64,000 bases of DNA from positions 32,022 to 96,021 of IMG/VR virus record IMGVR_UViG_3300033508_000214; one strand, written 5' to 3'. The translations under genes were made by a program, and so were the position numbers. The notes below the pieces were generated by a model. The model was not told the DNA's origin, did no database searches, and was given only the letters and a program-made list of their open reading frames with translations. The first letter of the stretch is position 1, and every line of letters begins with the position of its first letter. Below are positions 7,823 through 39,869 of the stretch, piece after piece. Origin of the DNA: a virus.

Positions 7823-8077
7823 ATGGCAGTTTCTTCTAAACTTGAGTTTGTTCAAAGTTTCACCGGGTTTCTGCCTGGTGAGTTTAAGGGGGCGTTTTTA
7901 TTTACAGTTATTGACTGCGGAAAGCAGTCAATAACTGTCGCACTGCCTAACGCAAAATGGGCAGACTTGCAGGTAACCCTGAATGGGTTACTTATTAATC
8001 TCACAGGTGAGTATCCCCCTCAGATTAATAGGGCAATTAAGTTTGCCCGGAAACTATTCCCACACTGGCAGGGATAA
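7823..8077 (+). CDS. Hypothetical pre-early protein
   Basis: GGAG-TATATT-ATG translation start shared with the next cassettes. Confidence 0.65.
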   Translation: MAVSSKLEFVQSFTGFLPGEFKGAFLFTVIDCGKQSITVALPNAKWADLQVTLNGLLINLTGEYPPQINRAIKFARKLFPHWQG

Positions 8078-8163
8078 TACTCTGCCAGTCAACCCGGATG
8101 TTATCCGGGTTGAAAATATAATATATCTTGCAAGATATATTATATTTTCAACTGGAGTATATT

Positions 8164-8298
8164 ATGTTTTCAATTGTTCGCGTTGACCAGTTTGGTTTTA
8201 TTAATTTTGCCGTCCATCTGGATGGCGTGGAGCTGGTTCGATTTGAAAAATACGGCTTGGCTGTGGATTTCATCCGCGCTATGGATGATATAGGATAA
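8164..8298 (+). CDS. Small hypothetical protein (44 aa)
   Basis: CTGGAGTATATTATG start after a double hairpin. Confidence 0.6.
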   Translation: MFSIVRVDQFGFINFAVHLDGVELVRFEKYGLAVDFIRAMDDIG

Positions 8299-8380
8299 TA
8301 TATAACCCTGCCAGATATTATCTGGCAGGGTTAAAATTTAAAGTAGCGGTCGATGCTTTAAATTTTAACTGGAGTATATT

Positions 8381-8461
8381 ATGTTGACTATTATTGCCAT
8401 CGGGTTTGGTTTACAGATTTTCGGAATGTGCGTTATTTATTTATGCGTTAAAATGCGCTAA
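8381..8461 (+). CDS. 26-aa hydrophobic peptide
   Basis: Same CTGGAGTATATTATG start; MLTIIAIGFGLQIFGMCVIYLCVKMR. Confidence 0.5.
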   Translation: MLTIIAIGFGLQIFGMCVIYLCVKMR

Positions 8462-8487
8462 TAAATAATAATAATAATAACCCTTAG

Positions 8488-8526
8488 AAACCTGATCAGG
8501 CAATACCTGATCAGGTTTTCTTTTTT
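8488..8526 (+). terminator. Intrinsic terminator
   Basis: AAACCTGATCAGG-N-CCTGATCAGGTTT followed by a T-run. Confidence 0.75.
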
Positions 8527-8530
8527 GTAT

Positions 8531-8636
8531 TATATAATACTTATCTCGGGTCTTATATAATACTTATCTCGGGTCTTATATAATACTTATCTCGGGTCTT
8601 ATATAATACTTATCTCAGGTCTTATATAATACTTAT
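8531..8636. repeat. 23-bp tandem repeat x4.6 (TATATAATACTTATCTCGGGTCT)
   Basis: Copies at 8531, 8554, 8577, 8600 and a partial copy at 8623. Confidence 0.95.
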
Positions 8637-8846
8637 ATTCGCGAATTTGCGCCAAGTGCTTACCTGAATTTATTTTTATTTATGTAGGATACTACTACAA
8701 GTATAGCTGCGCCGATTTTTGCTCGCCCTTTCACAACCTCATTATACACCTATTTTTAAACTGTGCGCATAAACTTGAAAATATATTTTTTCGTTGTTTT
8801 TGATGTTTGTCAGCTTCGGGTAAGGAACCCGGTGTAGGAACCCCTT

Positions 8847-8948
8847 TGCTATGCTTTTCATAGCGCCAAATTTTACCATAAAATCAAGGCAAAAAATTAG
8901 ATGTTGCAGTCTAATTTTTAGCGGCAAACCTGGAGTATAATCCACGCT
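8847..8948. promoter_or_regulatory. Repeated ~105-bp regulatory module, copy 1
   Basis: GCTATG-N-CATAGC palindrome, GCCAAATTTTACCATAAAATCAAGGC, AAAAATTAG..CTAATTTT, CCTGGAGTATAAT; near-identical at 10146 and 11713. Confidence 0.8.
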
Positions 8949-9193
8949 AGACTATAAAGGATTAATATGGATATTATTGATATTATTGCTGTTATTATTA
9001 CTATTATTAGTTTGCCATTATTTATTTGGAGTTAATATGAGCATTTATTTGGATATGATTAACGCACAGTATAATGAAAATTATACTGACATTAGTTACC
9101 TGGGAAATAGTGATTATCTCTTGATTAAGGGTAATCGGTATGGTACGGCTAAAATTATCGATAACGTGATAATCGGATATTATAGGGGCTAAT

Positions 9194-9532
9194 ATGGAAA
9201 TTCAAATATATGCTGAAACCCTTTGGATTTCATATAAAAAGATATTCCCTGAGTTAAGGGGTGAATGTCCTAAAATTATATTATCTAATAGGCTGACTAA
9301 AACAGCTGGATATAATATAAGCGAACATAATACTATTACACTAGGTAATAAGTTTTTCAAGCGTAACATGGATAGTATGCTGAAAATTACATTACCCCAC
9401 GAATTAGCACATCAAATTGATTATAACCTGCATGGTTGGTCAAAAAATAGAAAACATCACAATAGTAATTGGTGCGCTATTATGATGATTATCGGTTTAG
9501 ACCCTGACCCTTATCATTACATGGAGATATAA
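9194..9532 (+). CDS. SprT-like zinc metalloprotease
   Basis: SNRLTKTAG, HELAH (HExxH), downstream HH..W. Confidence 0.8.
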   Translation: MEIQIYAETLWISYKKIFPELRGECPKIILSNRLTKTAGYNISEHNTITLGNKFFKRNMDSMLKITLPHELAHQIDYNLHGWSKNRKHHNSNWCAIMMIIGLDPDPYHYMEI

Positions 9533-9696: not shown

Positions 9697-9918
9697 TTGA
9701 TAATGAATGTTAATTATATTTCCTGGTTTGCCACCGTATTATCTATTATTGGTGCATTTACGGTGGCAAATGGTATTACCCTTTTCGGATACTGTGCATT
9801 TATATTAGGTTCTATTGGCTGGGGCTATATTGGAATTACTAATAAAGATAACGCACTTATTACAATGCAGGGTGTTTTTTTAATGGCTAATATAATGGGA
9901 TTATATAATGCAATATGA
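9697..9918 (+). CDS. Small membrane protein
   Basis: Three hydrophobic segments. Confidence 0.55.
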   Translation: MIMNVNYISWFATVLSIIGAFTVANGITLFGYCAFILGSIGWGYIGITNKDNALITMQGVFLMANIMGLYNAI

Positions 9919-10072
9919 TATTTATGTGATAATGTTTAGACCACCTTTCTCGGATAAGTATTATTCGACTAAAGCATTTAATACCTTAGAAGATGCGGAT
10001 ATTTATATATTTGAAAATTCGGAGCTTAACCCGGATGCTTATTATGTTGCAGTAATAACTGTTAATTAAAAT

Positions 10073-34943: not shown

Positions 34944-35552
34944 ATGAATAAACACGACGATGACGAATATGTAGATGGTATTATGCTAGGTAATAAATCT
35001 AGCATTAAACCAAAAGCGCTAGCACATTTATACGAGTACTACATCTCCGGCCCTATTACTGGCCCAGAAGATTATATTGAAGTATTTGATCAGATTCGCC
35101 ACGCTAGACCAGATGATGAAATCCGATTATATATTAATAGCTACGGCGGGGATTTGTACACCGCTATTCAATTCCTAAGAGTTCTTAGCGAAACTGAGGC
35201 CCTAGTTACTGCTTCTATTGAAGGTGCGTGCTTTAGTGCCGCTACATTGCTTTTCTTGAACTCAGACATCTTTGAGGTCACCCCCCATTCTAGCTTCATG
35301 ATCCACTCATATTCGGGTGGCACCTTTGGTAAGGGATCTGAAATGCATGCCCAGATCATACATGAAAAAGTATGGGCTAGTAAACTATTCGCAGAAGTAT
35401 ATGAAGATTTCCTTTCAGCTAAAGAGATTGAAGAAGTCTTAGCAGGTAGAGATTTATGGTTATCTACCGAGCAAGTAGCCGAACGTATGAATAAAAGAAT
35501 TGCAACTCGCCGTGAGTTGGCAGAGCTTGAAGATGCTACAAAACCAGACTAA
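34944..35552 (+). CDS. clpP: ClpP-like serine protease
   Basis: YINSYGGD, ACFSAATLLF (catalytic Ser), FMIHS (His), RDLWL (Asp). Confidence 0.85.
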   Translation: MNKHDDDEYVDGIMLGNKSSIKPKALAHLYEYYISGPITGPEDYIEVFDQIRHARPDDEIRLYINSYGGDLYTAIQFLRVLSETEALVTASIEGACFSAATLLFLNSDIFEVTPHSSFMIHSYSGGTFGKGSEMHAQIIHEKVWASKLFAEVYEDFLSAKEIEEVLAGRDLWLSTEQVAERMNKRIATRRELAELEDATKPD

Positions 35553-36114
35553 GGTAATTATATCTCTATTTGATTATTCAGGTAACTGGCCTAGCTTCTA
35601 CAAAGCTAACGGATACGATGTATATTCTTTAGATATAAAGAATGACATTGATATACTAACTTTAGTTAGAACAGACCTACCAAATAATGTATATGGTATT
35701 CTAGCAGCTCCACCGTGTACTGATTTTAGTGGTTCTGGTGCTCAATACTGGAAGACTAAGGATGCAGATGGAAGAACAGAAGCATCCTTATCATTAGTAG
35801 ATAAGACACTAGAAATTGTTAGTTGGTATCCAGAAATACGATTCTGGGCCTTAGAGAATCCCGTAGGTAGATTATCTACATTAAGACCACAAATTGGAAA
35901 ACCCTGGTATTTTCAACCTCATTGGTTTGGTGACCCGTATACTAAAAAGACGGGGTTATGGGGTAATTTCAATAAAGACTTACCTAGAAATGATGTAGTT
36001 CCTGACCCTAATAACTGGATAATGAAATTAGGTGGAAAGTCGGAGCGCACAAAAGAACTTAGAAGTATGACACCTCTAGGATTTGCAAAAGCCTTTTATG
36101 AGGCAAATAAATAA
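35533..36114 (+). CDS. Short DNA (cytosine-5) methyltransferase
   Basis: SLFDYSG, AAPPCTDFS, LENP. Confidence 0.82.
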   Translation: MLQNQTKVIISLFDYSGNWPSFYKANGYDVYSLDIKNDIDILTLVRTDLPNNVYGILAAPPCTDFSGSGAQYWKTKDADGRTEASLSLVDKTLEIVSWYPEIRFWALENPVGRLSTLRPQIGKPWYFQPHWFGDPYTKKTGLWGNFNKDLPRNDVVPDPNNWIMKLGGKSERTKELRSMTPLGFAKAFYEANK

Positions 36115-36124
36115 GGATTCACAC

Positions 36125-36253
36125 ATGGCAACTAAACCTAAATTCCATCCAGTAGACCCAGCTAAGGAGCCTGCTAAGGAGCCTGCTAAGGAGCCTGCTA
36201 AGGAGCCTGCTAAGGTTCCTCCCGCAAAGACCCCTAAGAAACCAGGAAAGTGA
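36125..36253 (+). CDS. 42-aa PAKE-repeat peptide
   Basis: AAGGA SD; 12-bp repeat CCTGCTAAGGAG; (PAKE)4 PAKV PPAKTPKKPGK. Confidence 0.55.
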   Translation: MATKPKFHPVDPAKEPAKEPAKEPAKEPAKVPPAKTPKKPGK

Positions 36254-36572: not shown

Positions 36573-36875
36573 ATGGCTAAAACATTTTCAAATCTAAAAA
36601 ACCCTAAGTGTGGCATGCACGATATTATTAGCTTCGGAAAGCTAAAAGGATGTAGAGTATGTGACGTAATAGAAGATCACTACGACTACCTAATATGGGC
36701 AGAAAAGCAAGGTTACATTAAGTTTCAGGAAATAGTAGTTGAAACTATCCAAGAAGCTGCTCATTTCGAAAAATGGACATCCCCAGAAGAATCATCAAAT
36801 CCTCATAAATATGAATATCTTTTTGAAATCGCTACACGACAAGAAGAGGACTGGTATGACGATATTCCCTACTAA
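36573..36875 (+). CDS. Hypothetical protein with FGK.KG motif (DUF3820/ExoX C-terminal-like)
   Basis: ISFGKLKG..V.D...DYLIW. Confidence 0.6.
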   Translation: MAKTFSNLKNPKCGMHDIISFGKLKGCRVCDVIEDHYDYLIWAEKQGYIKFQEIVVETIQEAAHFEKWTSPEESSNPHKYEYLFEIATRQEEDWYDDIPY

Positions 36876-36877
36876 AT

Positions 36878-37192
36878 ATGACTAAATTTGAAAACAGCGA
36901 TGCCATAGTATTAGGGCTAATTAAACATTTAAACTTAGCAAGTAATACCTCAATATCTAAAATATCGAGGATTAAATCTTTAGATATTTTACAAGAAGTA
37001 TTAGAATATCTAGTACTAAATATTTCTACAGAAATTGATGAAGAATTACAATCTATATACTCAAGAGTTTTACCTAAGATTTTAGTTAAAGTAATTAAAG
37101 CTAAAGTATGTATCAACACATCACCCCAAGATTTTAAGGACGAAGTAGGGTTCCTACGAATAGTTCTAGGGTACAACAACCCGAATATGTAA
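36878..37192 (+). CDS. Hypothetical protein
   Basis: AT-rich ORF upstream of flagellin. Confidence 0.45.
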   Translation: MTKFENSDAIVLGLIKHLNLASNTSISKISRIKSLDILQEVLEYLVLNISTEIDEELQSIYSRVLPKILVKVIKAKVCINTSPQDFKDEVGFLRIVLGYNNPNM

Positions 37193-37228
37193 AAATATAG
37201 TTCCTTACTTTATTATAAAGGTTCTATC

Positions 37229-38050
37229 ATGTTATCAATTAATAATAACTCTACTGCTTCTTCTATTTCTAATATATTTAATTCTATCTCTAGGGATATG
37301 GATTTAACTAATAGAAGAATTGCTACTGGTAAACGGATTTTATCAGCCGCGGATGATCCTGCTGGAAGTTCTATTGTCTCTTCTTTAAAGAGTCAAAACT
37401 CATCTTATGACGCAGTTCAAAAGAACCTTTTAGCAGGTAGTTCTCTACTTGACGTAGCATCTACCGCATTAGACTCTCAACAGACTCTAATGACGCAGAT
37501 GAAAACTATTGCAACCCAAGCTGCTTCTGGTACCCTTTCCGCGGATCAACGTACTGCACTACAAAATACTTTTACTGAGCTACAAACTCAGCTTAATCAG
37601 ACAGCCAATGGTGCGTCTTTATTTGGACAAAATTTGACAGGAACAACGGCTGCTGCTGTTCAGTTACAAACAGGTATTAATGCTGGCAATACTTATAATT
37701 TAAGTATTGCTAAATCAGATGCCGCAACTTTAGCTATTGACGCAGCAACTATTGATATTACAGACGCTACTAAAGCTGCTGCTGCAATGACAGCATTAGA
37801 TACAGCGATTGGTACAGTATCTTCTAATCAAGGTATTATTGGTGCACAGCAAAATGCTTTAAAAGCTATTACTCAGACCGCTACAAATACACAAGAAAAT
37901 CTAGTTAGAACTATCTCTAGCATTGAAGATGTAGATATGGCAGCTGAGTCTACTCGATTAGCTCAGCTACAAACGAAGCAGCAATTGGCTGGCTCGATGT
38001 TGTCAATCGCTAATCAAACTCCAAGTTACATCTTACAGTTGTTAAGATAG
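37229..38050 (+). CDS. fliC: Flagellin (minimal D0/D1 type)
   Basis: SINNN; RRIATGKRILSAADDPAG; QAASGT.S..QR; LQTG; IGAQQN.L; IEDVDMAAE...L...Q..QQ....ML..ANQ.P..ILQLLR; no Cys, His or Trp. Confidence 0.93.
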   Translation: MLSINNNSTASSISNIFNSISRDMDLTNRRIATGKRILSAADDPAGSSIVSSLKSQNSSYDAVQKNLLAGSSLLDVASTALDSQQTLMTQMKTIATQAASGTLSADQRTALQNTFTELQTQLNQTANGASLFGQNLTGTTAAAVQLQTGINAGNTYNLSIAKSDAATLAIDAATIDITDATKAAAAMTALDTAIGTVSSNQGIIGAQQNALKAITQTATNTQENLVRTISSIEDVDMAAESTRLAQLQTKQQLAGSMLSIANQTPSYILQLLR

Positions 38051-38053
38051 TAT

Positions 38054-38125
38054 ACTGCCCCTAGTGTAGGGGCTGCACATTTATCTGTGGAATAAGTAGA
38101 GAGTTCGATTCTCCGGTTCAACCCA
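38054..38125 (+). pseudogene. tRNA-His(GUG) pseudogene
   Basis: D-arm, TTAT-CTGTGGA-ATAA, T-arm and CCA present, but the acceptor stem cannot pair. Confidence 0.6.
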
Positions 38126-38172
38126 ATAAAAATAATCTTGATTACTTTGTTAAAAATTGTTATAATTAATGC

Positions 38173-38397
38173 ATGAAAAAAGTATTTAAAACCTATGATG
38201 TAAGTCCCAAAATGGGCACTCCTCGGAATACTACTAAGCCGCCAAGCCTAGTAACACCTGGAGGTTCTACAGCATTAAAAGCTGCTAAAGTATATACAGG
38301 TGATAAAATGATTGGAATTGCGATTATACATAAGTCATGCTTGCAACCAGTCTTTTCTAAAGAAGCAGCAACTGATACAGCACAAATGAGGCGTTAA
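38173..38397 (+). CDS. Hypothetical protein
   Basis: KVYTG..MIGIA..HKS..QPVFS..A.D.A.MRR; promoter immediately upstream. Confidence 0.6.
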   Translation: MKKVFKTYDVSPKMGTPRNTTKPPSLVTPGGSTALKAAKVYTGDKMIGIAIIHKSCLQPVFSKEAATDTAQMRR

Positions 38398-38536
38398 TAT
38401 GACAATTTTTCTAATAAGTTTATTTATAGTGCTAGGACAGCTACTAGCAGGTATGGCCTTATTTATGATGTTAGTACTAATTATTCTAATTCCTATATAC
38501 GCATACGCTTTTCAAAATGTAGACAAAGATTAACTT

Positions 38537-38611
38537 GCAGGTAAGGTGTTTACAGATACACACTAGTCTTCCAAACTTGAATAGTCGGAGCATTACCGAC
38601 TACCTGCTCCA
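38537..38611 (+). tRNA. tRNA-Gly(UCC)
   Basis: GCAGGTA/TACCTGC, U73, loop CTTCCAA. Confidence 0.85.
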
Positions 38612-38619
38612 AATAATCA

Positions 38620-38694
38620 GTTCGAGTAGCTCAGAGGCAGAGCGCTGCTTTTACACGGCAGAAGTCGGGATCTCGGAATTCCCCTTGAACACCA
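38620..38694 (+). tRNA. tRNA-Val(UAC)
   Basis: CTGCT-TTTACAC-GGCAG, CCA. Confidence 0.88.
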
Positions 38695-39065
38695 ATAAAT
38701 AACACATAATATCATGCGCAAAATACTTTTAACAATGGGTACTGGGTACGCAGGTACGAGTACCCACGAAGCCTATTTAGTTCCAGATGATATGCCTGAT
38801 GATGAATTAGATGAATGGGCTTACTGGAAAGCCGTAGAACACGCAGAGTCTTATGGTATTTATCCACCATCTGATGACGATTCTACGAATACCATTGAAG
38901 GGCACTGGCGTCTTTTTGAAGAAAAAGATCGCGTTAAAGTACTTTATGGTGACAATCAAGAAATTGACTGGAACGAGTATTAACGGGAAGTACCCTAGTA
39001 GGGTGATTCAGCGTGTACCTAAAAAGCATGAGAATTAGGTTAGATTCCTAGACTTTCTATCAAAT

Positions 39066-39175
39066 GCGCGTTGTAGGTGAGAAGGGAGGTGGAAACGTCC
39101 CTAAACTATGTATGGTGAAGGCGTCCACCTTGCAGCATCCTCTATCGTGGGTTCGATTCCCACCAGCGTGCTCCA
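39066..39175 (+). ncRNA. tRNA-like RNA with 8-bp acceptor stem, T-arm and CCA
   Basis: GCGCGTTG/CAGCGTGC-T-CCA; GTGGG-TTCGATT-CCCAC; GAGGTGGA/TCCACCTT helix in place of D and anticodon arms. Confidence 0.65.
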
Positions 39176-39180
39176 AGTTA

Positions 39181-39258
39181 GGAACATTAGCATAGTTGGC
39201 CTAATGCGCTACCCTGTCACGGTAGAGACCACCGATTCGACTTCGGTATGTTCCGCCA
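39181..39258 (+). tRNA. tRNA-Asp(GUC)
   Basis: CTACC-CTGTCAC-GGTAG, G73, CCA. Confidence 0.92.
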
Positions 39259-39299
39259 CTATTTCAGCCCGCTTTATGCGGGCATTATTATGATATAAT

Positions 39300-39869
39300 A
39301 TGAGCAATATATTTCTAGCGTCAGATCATCACATTGGACATGAAGCCTTACTAAACTTTAAACGTAATGATGGGATTACACATATTCGTTCATTTGATAA
39401 CGTAAATCATATGAACGAATATATAATTATACAACATAATTCTGTTGTTAAGCCTGCAGATCGCGTATACCTTTTAGGCGATTTTTGCTTTCATAAGCGT
39501 GATCTAGCAATCCTATCTAGGATGAATGGACATAAAGTACTAATTAAAGGTAACCACGATAAACTAGATTTAAAAGACTATCTAGCGTATTTTGATGATA
39601 TAAGAGGATCACACCAACTCGATGGTATGTTACTAACACATATTCCAGTACACCCTAATAGTTTAGGAAAATGGCATGTAAATATTCATGGGCATCTACA
39701 TCATAGCATAGTTACTAAAGAAGTATATACCTATGGTGCCAATGAGTTACTAGTAGCACCAGACCATAGGTATTTCAATGTATCAATGGAGTGCTTAGAT
39801 AAGTATACTCCTATCAGTTTAGAAGAGCTAAAGAAAGAACATAAATTTAGACTTGATCATGATTTCTAA
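39300..39869 (+). CDS. Calcineurin-like phosphoesterase
   Basis: SDHHIGH, LGD, GNHD, THIP, HGHLH. Confidence 0.88.
   Translation: MSNIFLASDHHIGHEALLNFKRNDGITHIRSFDNVNHMNEYIIIQHNSVVKPADRVYLLGDFCFHKRDLAILSRMNGHKVLIKGNHDKLDLKDYLAYFDDIRGSHQLDGMLLTHIPVHPNSLGKWHVNIHGHLHHSIVTKEVYTYGANELLVAPDHRYFNVSMECLDKYTPISLEELKKEHKFRLDHDF

Follow-up and report, generated by a model that had tools for sequence, protein, structure and literature searches.

What does a flagellin gene do in the genome of a phage that is probably virulent? The question is raised by an open reading frame (ORF) in a 64,000-nucleotide stretch of viral DNA (the window), which corresponds to bases 32022-96021 of a 96,021-bp IMG/VR record rated 90% complete. 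A preliminary description, made from the letters of the window, had read this ORF as a complete but altered flagellin in a lytic, T5-like phage.

The Carrier Phage

The record encodes a large terminase, a portal, a protease-capsid protein, a replicative helicase, PolA, an NAD-dependent ligase and an SbcC-like nuclease, and carries 18 tRNAs. The gene set typical of T5-like phages (large tRNA cluster, NAD-dependent ligase, PolA, SbcCD-like nuclease, portal, protease-capsid protein and terminase) is therefore present, and the terminase is 45% identical to that of Vibrio phages with genomes of 112-118 kb. Neither a tyrosine integrase nor a serine recombinase/resolvase was found anywhere in the record. 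The gene set, the terminase identity and the absence of integrase and recombinase together support the view that the carrier is a T5-like and probably virulent phage, in agreement with the preliminary description, which had placed the flagellin gene in a lytic, T5-like phage.

The flagellin gene is located inside the tRNA region, shares the orientation of its neighbors and is packed between phage genes and tRNAs. Its GC3 value of 0.226 falls within the range of the other genes of the phage (0.22-0.35), which bears out the earlier remark that its codon usage resembles that of the neighboring genes. No convincing sigma-28 or sigma-54 promoter consensus was seen upstream of the gene upon inspection by eye, and in a consensus scan the number of sigma-70-like sites did not exceed chance. 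A weak terminator-like hairpin (38064-38078, plus strand), found by consensus scan alone, lies behind the flagellin stop codon.

Two further features of this region were observed. The gene after the flagellin gene is preceded by a strong sigma-70-like promoter in the consensus scan (38138-38166; TTGATT, 17 nt, TG-TATAAT); promoter and gene together span positions 38138-38397, within the same variable slot as the flagellin cassette (see below), and the 74-aa product matches the unnamed phage family phrog_27048 (E 1.8e-14). At positions 36083-36253, a short ORF ends in four tandem EPAK repeats (PAKEPAKEPAKEPAKEPAK) and overlaps the end of a 204-aa ORF (35500-36114); it may be a real gene or a frame artifact.

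The Gene Encodes a Minimal Flagellin

The ORF at positions 37229-38050 (plus strand) is complete, has an intact reading frame and encodes a protein of 273 aa. Both flagellin domains of Pfam are recognized well above their gathering scores: Flagellin_N (PF00669) over residues 4-136 (E 1.8e-23, 83.6 bits against a cut-off of 26.6) and Flagellin_C (PF00700) over residues 187-272 (E 2.6e-17, 63.4 bits against a cut-off of 23). An AlphaFold2 (AF2) model, computed from an alignment of 22 family members, reaches a pLDDT of 84 and contains helices at residues 8-33, 44-98, 105-128, 180-233 and 237-272 and a small beta-hairpin at residues 144-158. The predicted structure is a D0-D1 helical hairpin alone, without an outer domain. 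Two claims of the preliminary description, a complete 273-aa flagellin with both termini and the near absence of a hypervariable domain, thus hold. Foldseek aligns the model with filament subunits of Caulobacter, Kurthia, Shewanella and Pseudomonas (TM 0.88-0.92), and of its 67 sequence matches in the PDB, the best 60 without exception bear the name flagellin or flagellin homologue, down to an E-value of 9.5e-26.

Short-flagellin models score highest in NCBIfam (PRK12802, 122 bits, below its cut-off of 332), LafA_2 gives 95.6 against a cut-off of 365, and the window flagellin reaches the cut-off of none of the curated polar, lateral (LafA), FliC/FljB or Hag models. In PHROGs, the sole match is that of the C-terminal part to an unnamed family, and the protein atlas label is just ‘flagellin, Pseudomonadota.’ An identity as the junction protein FlgL was considered and rejected: the FlgL model gives 86.9 bits, below its cut-off of 127.2, while flagellin models give up to 122 bits, and the solved FlgL chain 9go6_N ranks only 48th in Foldseek (TM 0.74).

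A Flagellin Family Carried by Large Phages

A word-indexed search returned 355 relatives of the flagellin; the best 120 of these 355 have a length of 232-289 aa, are 45-94% identical and are all metagenomic, with some family members located on contigs of 160-235 kb. A scan of IMG/VR with the family alignment revealed 14 further loci (49-64% identity) on viral contigs of 5-328 kb, and each viral record encodes exactly one flagellin. According to CheckV, most of the carrier contigs are fragments of genomes of about 180-360 kb; a rating of complete is given to the 328-kb record, in which terminal repeats are present. Terminase genes are present in the 318-kb, 328-kb and 137-kb records. The family flagellins neighbor genes for ribonucleotide reductase, ATP-dependent ligase, RIIA, T4-type DNA polymerase, RNase H and dCMP deaminase, and not virion genes. 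Based on this gene content, most contigs with the 14 other loci are pieces of T4-like phage genomes of large or jumbo size, and the flagellin genes sit among early or middle genes rather than virion modules. A metagenome scan added two family contigs, both short. One metagenomic protein (P0137, 407 aa) is 46% identical, with its match split in two around an insertion of about 130 residues, which may represent an outer domain gained within the phage family.

No member of this family was found in 185,579 species genomes of bacteria and archaea (one genome per species; alignment scan). The best matches there, from Colwellia and Pseudocolwellia, reach 38%; they are polar flagellins of the ordinary tandem type, at 35-37%. 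When 401 Pseudomonadota genomes, drawn evenly, were searched directly, identity did not exceed 37%. Among 1.84 billion cluster representatives, searched exhaustively with HMMER, there are 23,128 flagellins, just 15 of which reach E 1e-30; about ten representatives with at least 43% identity constitute the family, and the next ones fall to 34-39%. Flagellins from outside the Pseudomonadota (e.g., Campylobacterota) were compared through the species-genome scan and this exhaustive search. As to deposited phages, the preliminary description knew of no characterized example in T5-like phages, and none of 50,697 deposited phage records encodes a full-length homologue of the window flagellin. A nucleotide search of the region against deposited phages gave matches in tRNA stretches only.

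Phylogenetic analysis gives the same picture. In a FastTree phylogeny of 259 sequences, zero bacterial-genome sequences fall within the family. In an IQ-TREE phylogeny of 107 sequences, the window flagellin, all 14 viral loci and the metagenomic family form a clade of 52 sequences (SH-aLRT 91), which includes none of the 17 bacterial-genome flagellins. The nearest neighbor of the window flagellin is a 94%-identical metagenomic protein, and a small clade with support of 95 unites it with the flagellin of L061, a fragment of 76 kb with an estimated completeness of 21%. For the outgroup flagellins closest to the family (P0142 and others), there was no viral hit. On the evidence of these searches and trees, the family is a viral clade to which no bacterial sequence belongs.

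All 15 viral copies are intact (271-273 aa). The dN/dS ratio is 0 (dS 0.061), 0.17 and 0.21 in the comparisons with unsaturated dS; in the remaining comparisons dS is saturated and dN is 0.25-0.47. Purifying selection on the flagellin is evident from these sequence comparisons, and the relaxed selection that the preliminary description had associated with a passenger gene is not what we found.

Signature Residues and a Conserved Exposed Segment

We set 139 sequences of the family against the 120 nearest flagellins outside it and found eight positions at which the two sets differ: K92 (elsewhere R), T96 (V), S100 (N), F132 (N), Q201 (R), G/A210 (R), L253 (A) and I260 (Q). These positions are well conserved in other flagellins, and the differences are fixed in a phage family of more than 100 sequences. 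The preliminary description had noticed that usually conserved charged residues are replaced in two motifs (MTQMKTIATQ, residues 88-97, and QGIIGAQQNAL, residues 201-211). The motifs stand as they were written, but the notion of an altered copy does not, since the changes are common to the whole phage family. As family-wide signatures, the replacements are therefore no mark of a crippled or ‘poison’ subunit in this particular copy.

The second peculiarity of the family concerns residues 129-179 (DNA positions 37613-37765), which form the exposed middle of the protein. The exposed middle segment is normally the most variable part of flagellins, and in the comparison set it is the least conserved part, with a conservation of 0.43. 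In the phage family, by contrast, it is the best-conserved long segment (0.70, versus 0.54-0.68 for the helical segments of D0 and D1), which suggests a conserved contact on the filament surface.

A Putative FliS-Like Chaperone Gene and Other Flagellar Companions

Clustering of the neighboring genes revealed a small ORF directly 5' of the flagellin gene in most of the 15 loci. In the window, this is a 104-aa ORF at positions 36878-37192 (plus strand), which begins 2 nt past the stop codon of the preceding phage ORF. Its product aligns with the directly upstream ORF of nine other viral loci (cluster A2) at 16-41% identity. None of the ten homologues has a match in Pfam, to the FliS family (PF02561) or any other, and the 104-aa protein has no sequence-profile match in the PDB. 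AF2 confidently predicts an antiparallel four-helix bundle for it (pLDDT 88, pTM 0.80), and the ten highest-ranking Foldseek hits in the PDB are all FliS (TM 0.54-0.71), with weak E-values of 0.07-0.19. In a search against 48,161 chains with VIA-align, an independent aligner, FliS takes ranks 1-2 (5xef with Z 14.5 at an rmsd of 2.5 across 102 residues, and 3iqc with Z 12.2), followed by generic helical bundles with Z-scores of about 11 and below; four-helix bundles can reach high structural scores by their common arrangement.

We also predicted the complex of flagellin residues 210-273 with the 104-aa protein. The ipSAE is 0.50, compared to 0.00 for the best control, which lends weak support to an interaction. 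In the calibration, 58 out of 80 solved complexes passed the mark, and so did 2 out of 110 mismatched pairs; at scores of up to 0.60 there were just seven of the solved complexes, together with both mismatches. The runs share at least 83% of the contacts, and the partner has a pLDDT of at least 79. As FliS-flagellin complexes have already been solved, the score may reflect likeness to them. Because of the fold evidence and the fixed position beside the flagellin gene, we read the 104-aa protein as a putative analogue of FliS-type chaperones. The earlier statement that the phage carries no other flagellar genes thus has to be revised: the ORF directly upstream is FliS-like by fold in both Foldseek and VIA-align.

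The chaperone-like gene and the flagellin gene are the only flagellar genes of the window's phage. Relatives have additional ones. Seven of the 15 records encode a compact FlgK-like protein downstream of the flagellin (340 aa, with rod-type N- and C-terminal domains and a match to FlgK D1); bacterial FlgK is considerably longer. These genes directly follow the flagellin gene, e.g., at positions 10860-11882 of L070 and 10849-11871 of L062, and likewise in L066, L067, L069 and L072. The records with a FlgK-like gene yielded neither FlgL nor FliD as a partner, and FliD is absent from all 15 viral records. FlaG-like genes occur in three records (G014, E 8.8e-13; G001; and G004, with a weak match).

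A Structured Leader Precedes the Flagellin Gene

The stretch of about 70 nt ahead of the flagellin start codon has a three-helix structure that is common to the window and five other loci. According to the RNAalifold consensus of the six loci, this 5' leader of the flagellin mRNA (37163-37231, plus strand) consists of two 4-bp hairpins and a last helix that pairs the Shine-Dalgarno region. The other copies are located at positions 9940-10003 (L061), 9939-10003 (L063), 9931-10003 (L066), 9892-9958 (L072) and 209-277 (L090). Over only five distinct sequences, 90% of the cells are paired, versus 78% in column shuffles and 42-56% with slid partners, and compensatory changes are found at nine pairs of the leader among these five distinct sequences. 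A covariance model (R1) searched over 384 kb of phage DNA matches directly upstream of flagellin genes only, including the locus L090, which lies outside the set from which the model was built (E 1.4e-7). No Rfam family matches the leader. The leader may act as a translational switch. It extends into the end of the chaperone-like gene, and the cassette therefore moved as one unit together with its regulation.

The Cassette Occupies a Variable Slot

The cassette lies in a region of 36876-39299, in the tRNA region, between a conserved gene of 100 aa (36573-36875) and a phosphoesterase gene (39300-39869). The phosphoesterase gene led to five related T5-like records, four with 55-59% identity and one with 36%. 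The flagellin is absent from all five, including a 112-kb record rated complete. In L078, the homologues of both flanking genes are just 414 bp apart, and in L075 they enclose different, unrelated ORFs. The latter two ORFs (150 and 201 aa) are found at positions 7997-9423 of this T5-like contig, at the place of the flagellin cassette. The short gap in L078 and the different ORFs in L075 indicate that the cassette occupies a variable cargo slot; since L075 carries unrelated ORFs at the same position, the interval between the 100-aa gene and the phosphoesterase gene is a cargo hot spot. The nearest T5-like relatives found lack the cassette; the flagellin gene is thus accessory in its T5-like carrier, and the cassette was laterally acquired. 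The place of the flagellin within a clade of large phages points to an exchange of the cassette between phage lineages.

Proposed Role of the Cassette

We propose that the ORF encodes a functional, polymerization-type minimal flagellin that forms one half of a mobile two-gene phage cassette and would be exported and built into host filaments, a reading to which we give a probability of roughly 0.55. Lytic viruses would thereby probably supply or rebuild the flagellar filament of the host during infection. The cassette would consist, in this order, of the gene for a FliS-shaped chaperone, the structured leader and the flagellin gene, and would circulate among virulent phages, for the most part T4-like ones with large or jumbo genomes, the carrier described here being T5-like. 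Upon infection, the flagellin would be translated under control of the leader, held monomeric by the phage chaperone and then passed to the flagellar type III export gate of the host, to polymerize at the tip of the host filament beneath the host cap. The likely purpose would be a sustained supply of filament once host gene expression has been shut off; cyanophage psbA follows the same logic of supply after host shut-off. A second possible purpose would be a changed filament surface that no longer serves as a phage receptor, a logic comparable to that of T5, which masks its own receptor.

None of these phages carries genes for the cap, hook, rod, motor, export gate or basal body. What they do supply is confined to the distal filament (a chaperone, a subunit and, in some cases, a protein for the junction or for length control), and the action of the flagellin must therefore depend on the flagellum of the host. 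Export into host filaments fits best with a predicted complete polymerization core under selection that is accompanied by a putative export-type chaperone. Several points argue against this explanation. Identity to the nearest bacterial flagellins is as low as 35-38%, which leaves compatibility with the junction, cap and export gate of the host as an assumption. The 104-aa protein has no sequence similarity to FliS, and four-helix bundles generally score high. A simple version of the receptor disguise does not predict the conserved segment 129-179, and remodeling of an existing filament would be limited in speed, as new subunits join at the distal tip only.

The same components could be put to other uses. 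Flagellin and chaperone might stay in the cytoplasm or at the export gate as a regulatory decoy, titrating host factors such as FliS, FliW-CsrA, FlgM/sigma-28 or the FlhA docking site, with host flagellar synthesis and secretion being shut down or reprogrammed. A decoy would agree with a phage that brings only flagellin and a chaperone-like protein, with a leader that hides the ribosome-binding site as in translation-controlled flagellin mRNAs, and with the distance of the family from every bacterial flagellin. We nevertheless consider it unlikely, as the whole D0-D1 polymerization core is kept and is predicted to be filament-like, and as the FlgK-like junction genes and FlaG-like length-control genes of the relatives are sensible for assembled filaments only; no link to FliW or CsrA came to light either. 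These same two partners would be unneeded if the flagellin were a poison or terminator subunit, in which the replaced D1 arginines result in a growth block or a non-propulsive filament and hence an immobilized cell or a disabled receptor. The substitutions are indeed consistent at sites where the nearest other flagellins mostly have arginine (K92, Q201 and G/A210). Yet they are ancient, family-wide and under purifying selection with the rest of the core, and some bacterial flagellins without these arginines still form working filaments. An export-type chaperone alongside the flagellin also favors export and incorporation over poisoning, which appears improbable to us. Nothing supports the change in immune visibility (TLR5/FLS2) that the preliminary description had considered as a further function.

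A use outside the flagellum, with the flagellin polymer as a virion appendage or an intracellular phage filament, would explain the unusual conservation of the surface segment 129-179 by a fixed binding partner and would suit the long evolution of the family within phages. However, the gene is located among early or middle genes for replication and nucleotide metabolism and among tRNAs, not in virion modules; it is accessory and absent from close T5-like relatives, and a protein with an export-type chaperone fold accompanies it, which leaves little room for this option. The least credible of the explanations is a functionless passenger gene or an assembly chimera with host DNA. The flagellin gene is accessory and lies in a variable slot, as a passenger might, but it is intact in 15 of 15 viral loci with a dN/dS of about 0.2 or less, matches the phage in GC3, is packed among phage genes and tRNAs in the same orientation, and recurs with the same cassette and leader in other phages, while no family member is found in the species genomes scanned.

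Returning to export into host filaments, a wider idea can be formulated more tentatively, at somewhat less than even odds: unrelated virulent phages (T4-like jumbo and T5-like) may swap a self-contained ‘filament kit’ that would have evolved within viruses for so long that bacteria have no counterpart of it. The kit would combine a chaperone with a flagellin gated at the level of translation, to which a compact FlgK or a FlaG can be added, and with it the phages would take over filament supply after host shut-off.

Relation to Known Systems

In the temperate Enterobacter phage FRphi, the flagellin gene fliC_P is paired with TldR, an RNA-guided repressor, and after infection the phage flagellin takes the place of the host flagellin in the filament (PMC13418256). 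FRphi is a lambda-like prophage in which TldR and its guide RNA silence the host fliC, and FliC_P has large D2-D4 outer domains on a core close to that of the host (PMC13418256). The phage described here resembles FRphi in having its own flagellin, but it is T5-like, with no integrase found, and its flagellin lacks an outer domain and shares no more than 38% identity with any genome-encoded flagellin. Its partners are a FliS-shaped protein and a structured leader. No TldR/TnpB-derived repressor is present beside the window flagellin, where the flanking ORFs are just 74-115 aa long; the combination of a temperate phage and a TldR gene next to the flagellin, which defines the FRphi-type module, is therefore not found in the window's phage.

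Minimal bacterial flagellins whose filaments have been solved (Caulobacter FljK/L/M/N, Kurthia, Shewanella FlaA/B and Bacillus Hag) belong to the same length class and share the D0-D1 fold. They are 23-31% identical, and the phage family differs from them by its signature residues, its conserved exposed segment and its carriage by viruses. The 104-aa protein shares with FliS (PF02561; PDB 5xef, 3iqc, 1orj, 6gow) the four-helix bundle, a similar size and the position of its gene adjoining a flagellin gene, but it is shorter than a typical FliS and has no detectable sequence similarity.

In a Nitrosospira phage, genes for FlaA, FlaG, FliJ and FliI are reported by annotation, without functional analysis (bioRxiv 10.64898/2026.05.02.722434). 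The phages of that report are cultured and belong to another host group. Neither a comparative review nor a metagenomic lineage study of large phages mentions flagellar genes. New in this work are the T5-like carrier, the evidence for insertion of the cassette, the family-wide signature residues with the conserved exposed segment, and the covarying leader.

Significance

Two genes and a 70-nt leader make the cassette a compact, testable system, and the family offers natural variants for the study of filament assembly, in that its D1 positions carry uncharged residues where basic ones are usual and its exposed segment is conserved. If virulent phages do exchange a filament kit, its use would lie either in continued swimming of the infected cell or in flagella that no longer function as receptors, and the kit would be a motility counterpart of the photosynthesis genes of cyanophages. 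Flagella are the means by which the host finds nutrients and a common phage receptor. The one phage flagellin known to have been characterized is that of a temperate prophage, with lysogenic conversion as its mode of action; a lytic-phage flagellin kept by selection, with a chaperone-like partner and a structured leader of its own, would mean, if our reading is true, that viruses manipulate bacterial motility within the lytic cycle itself.
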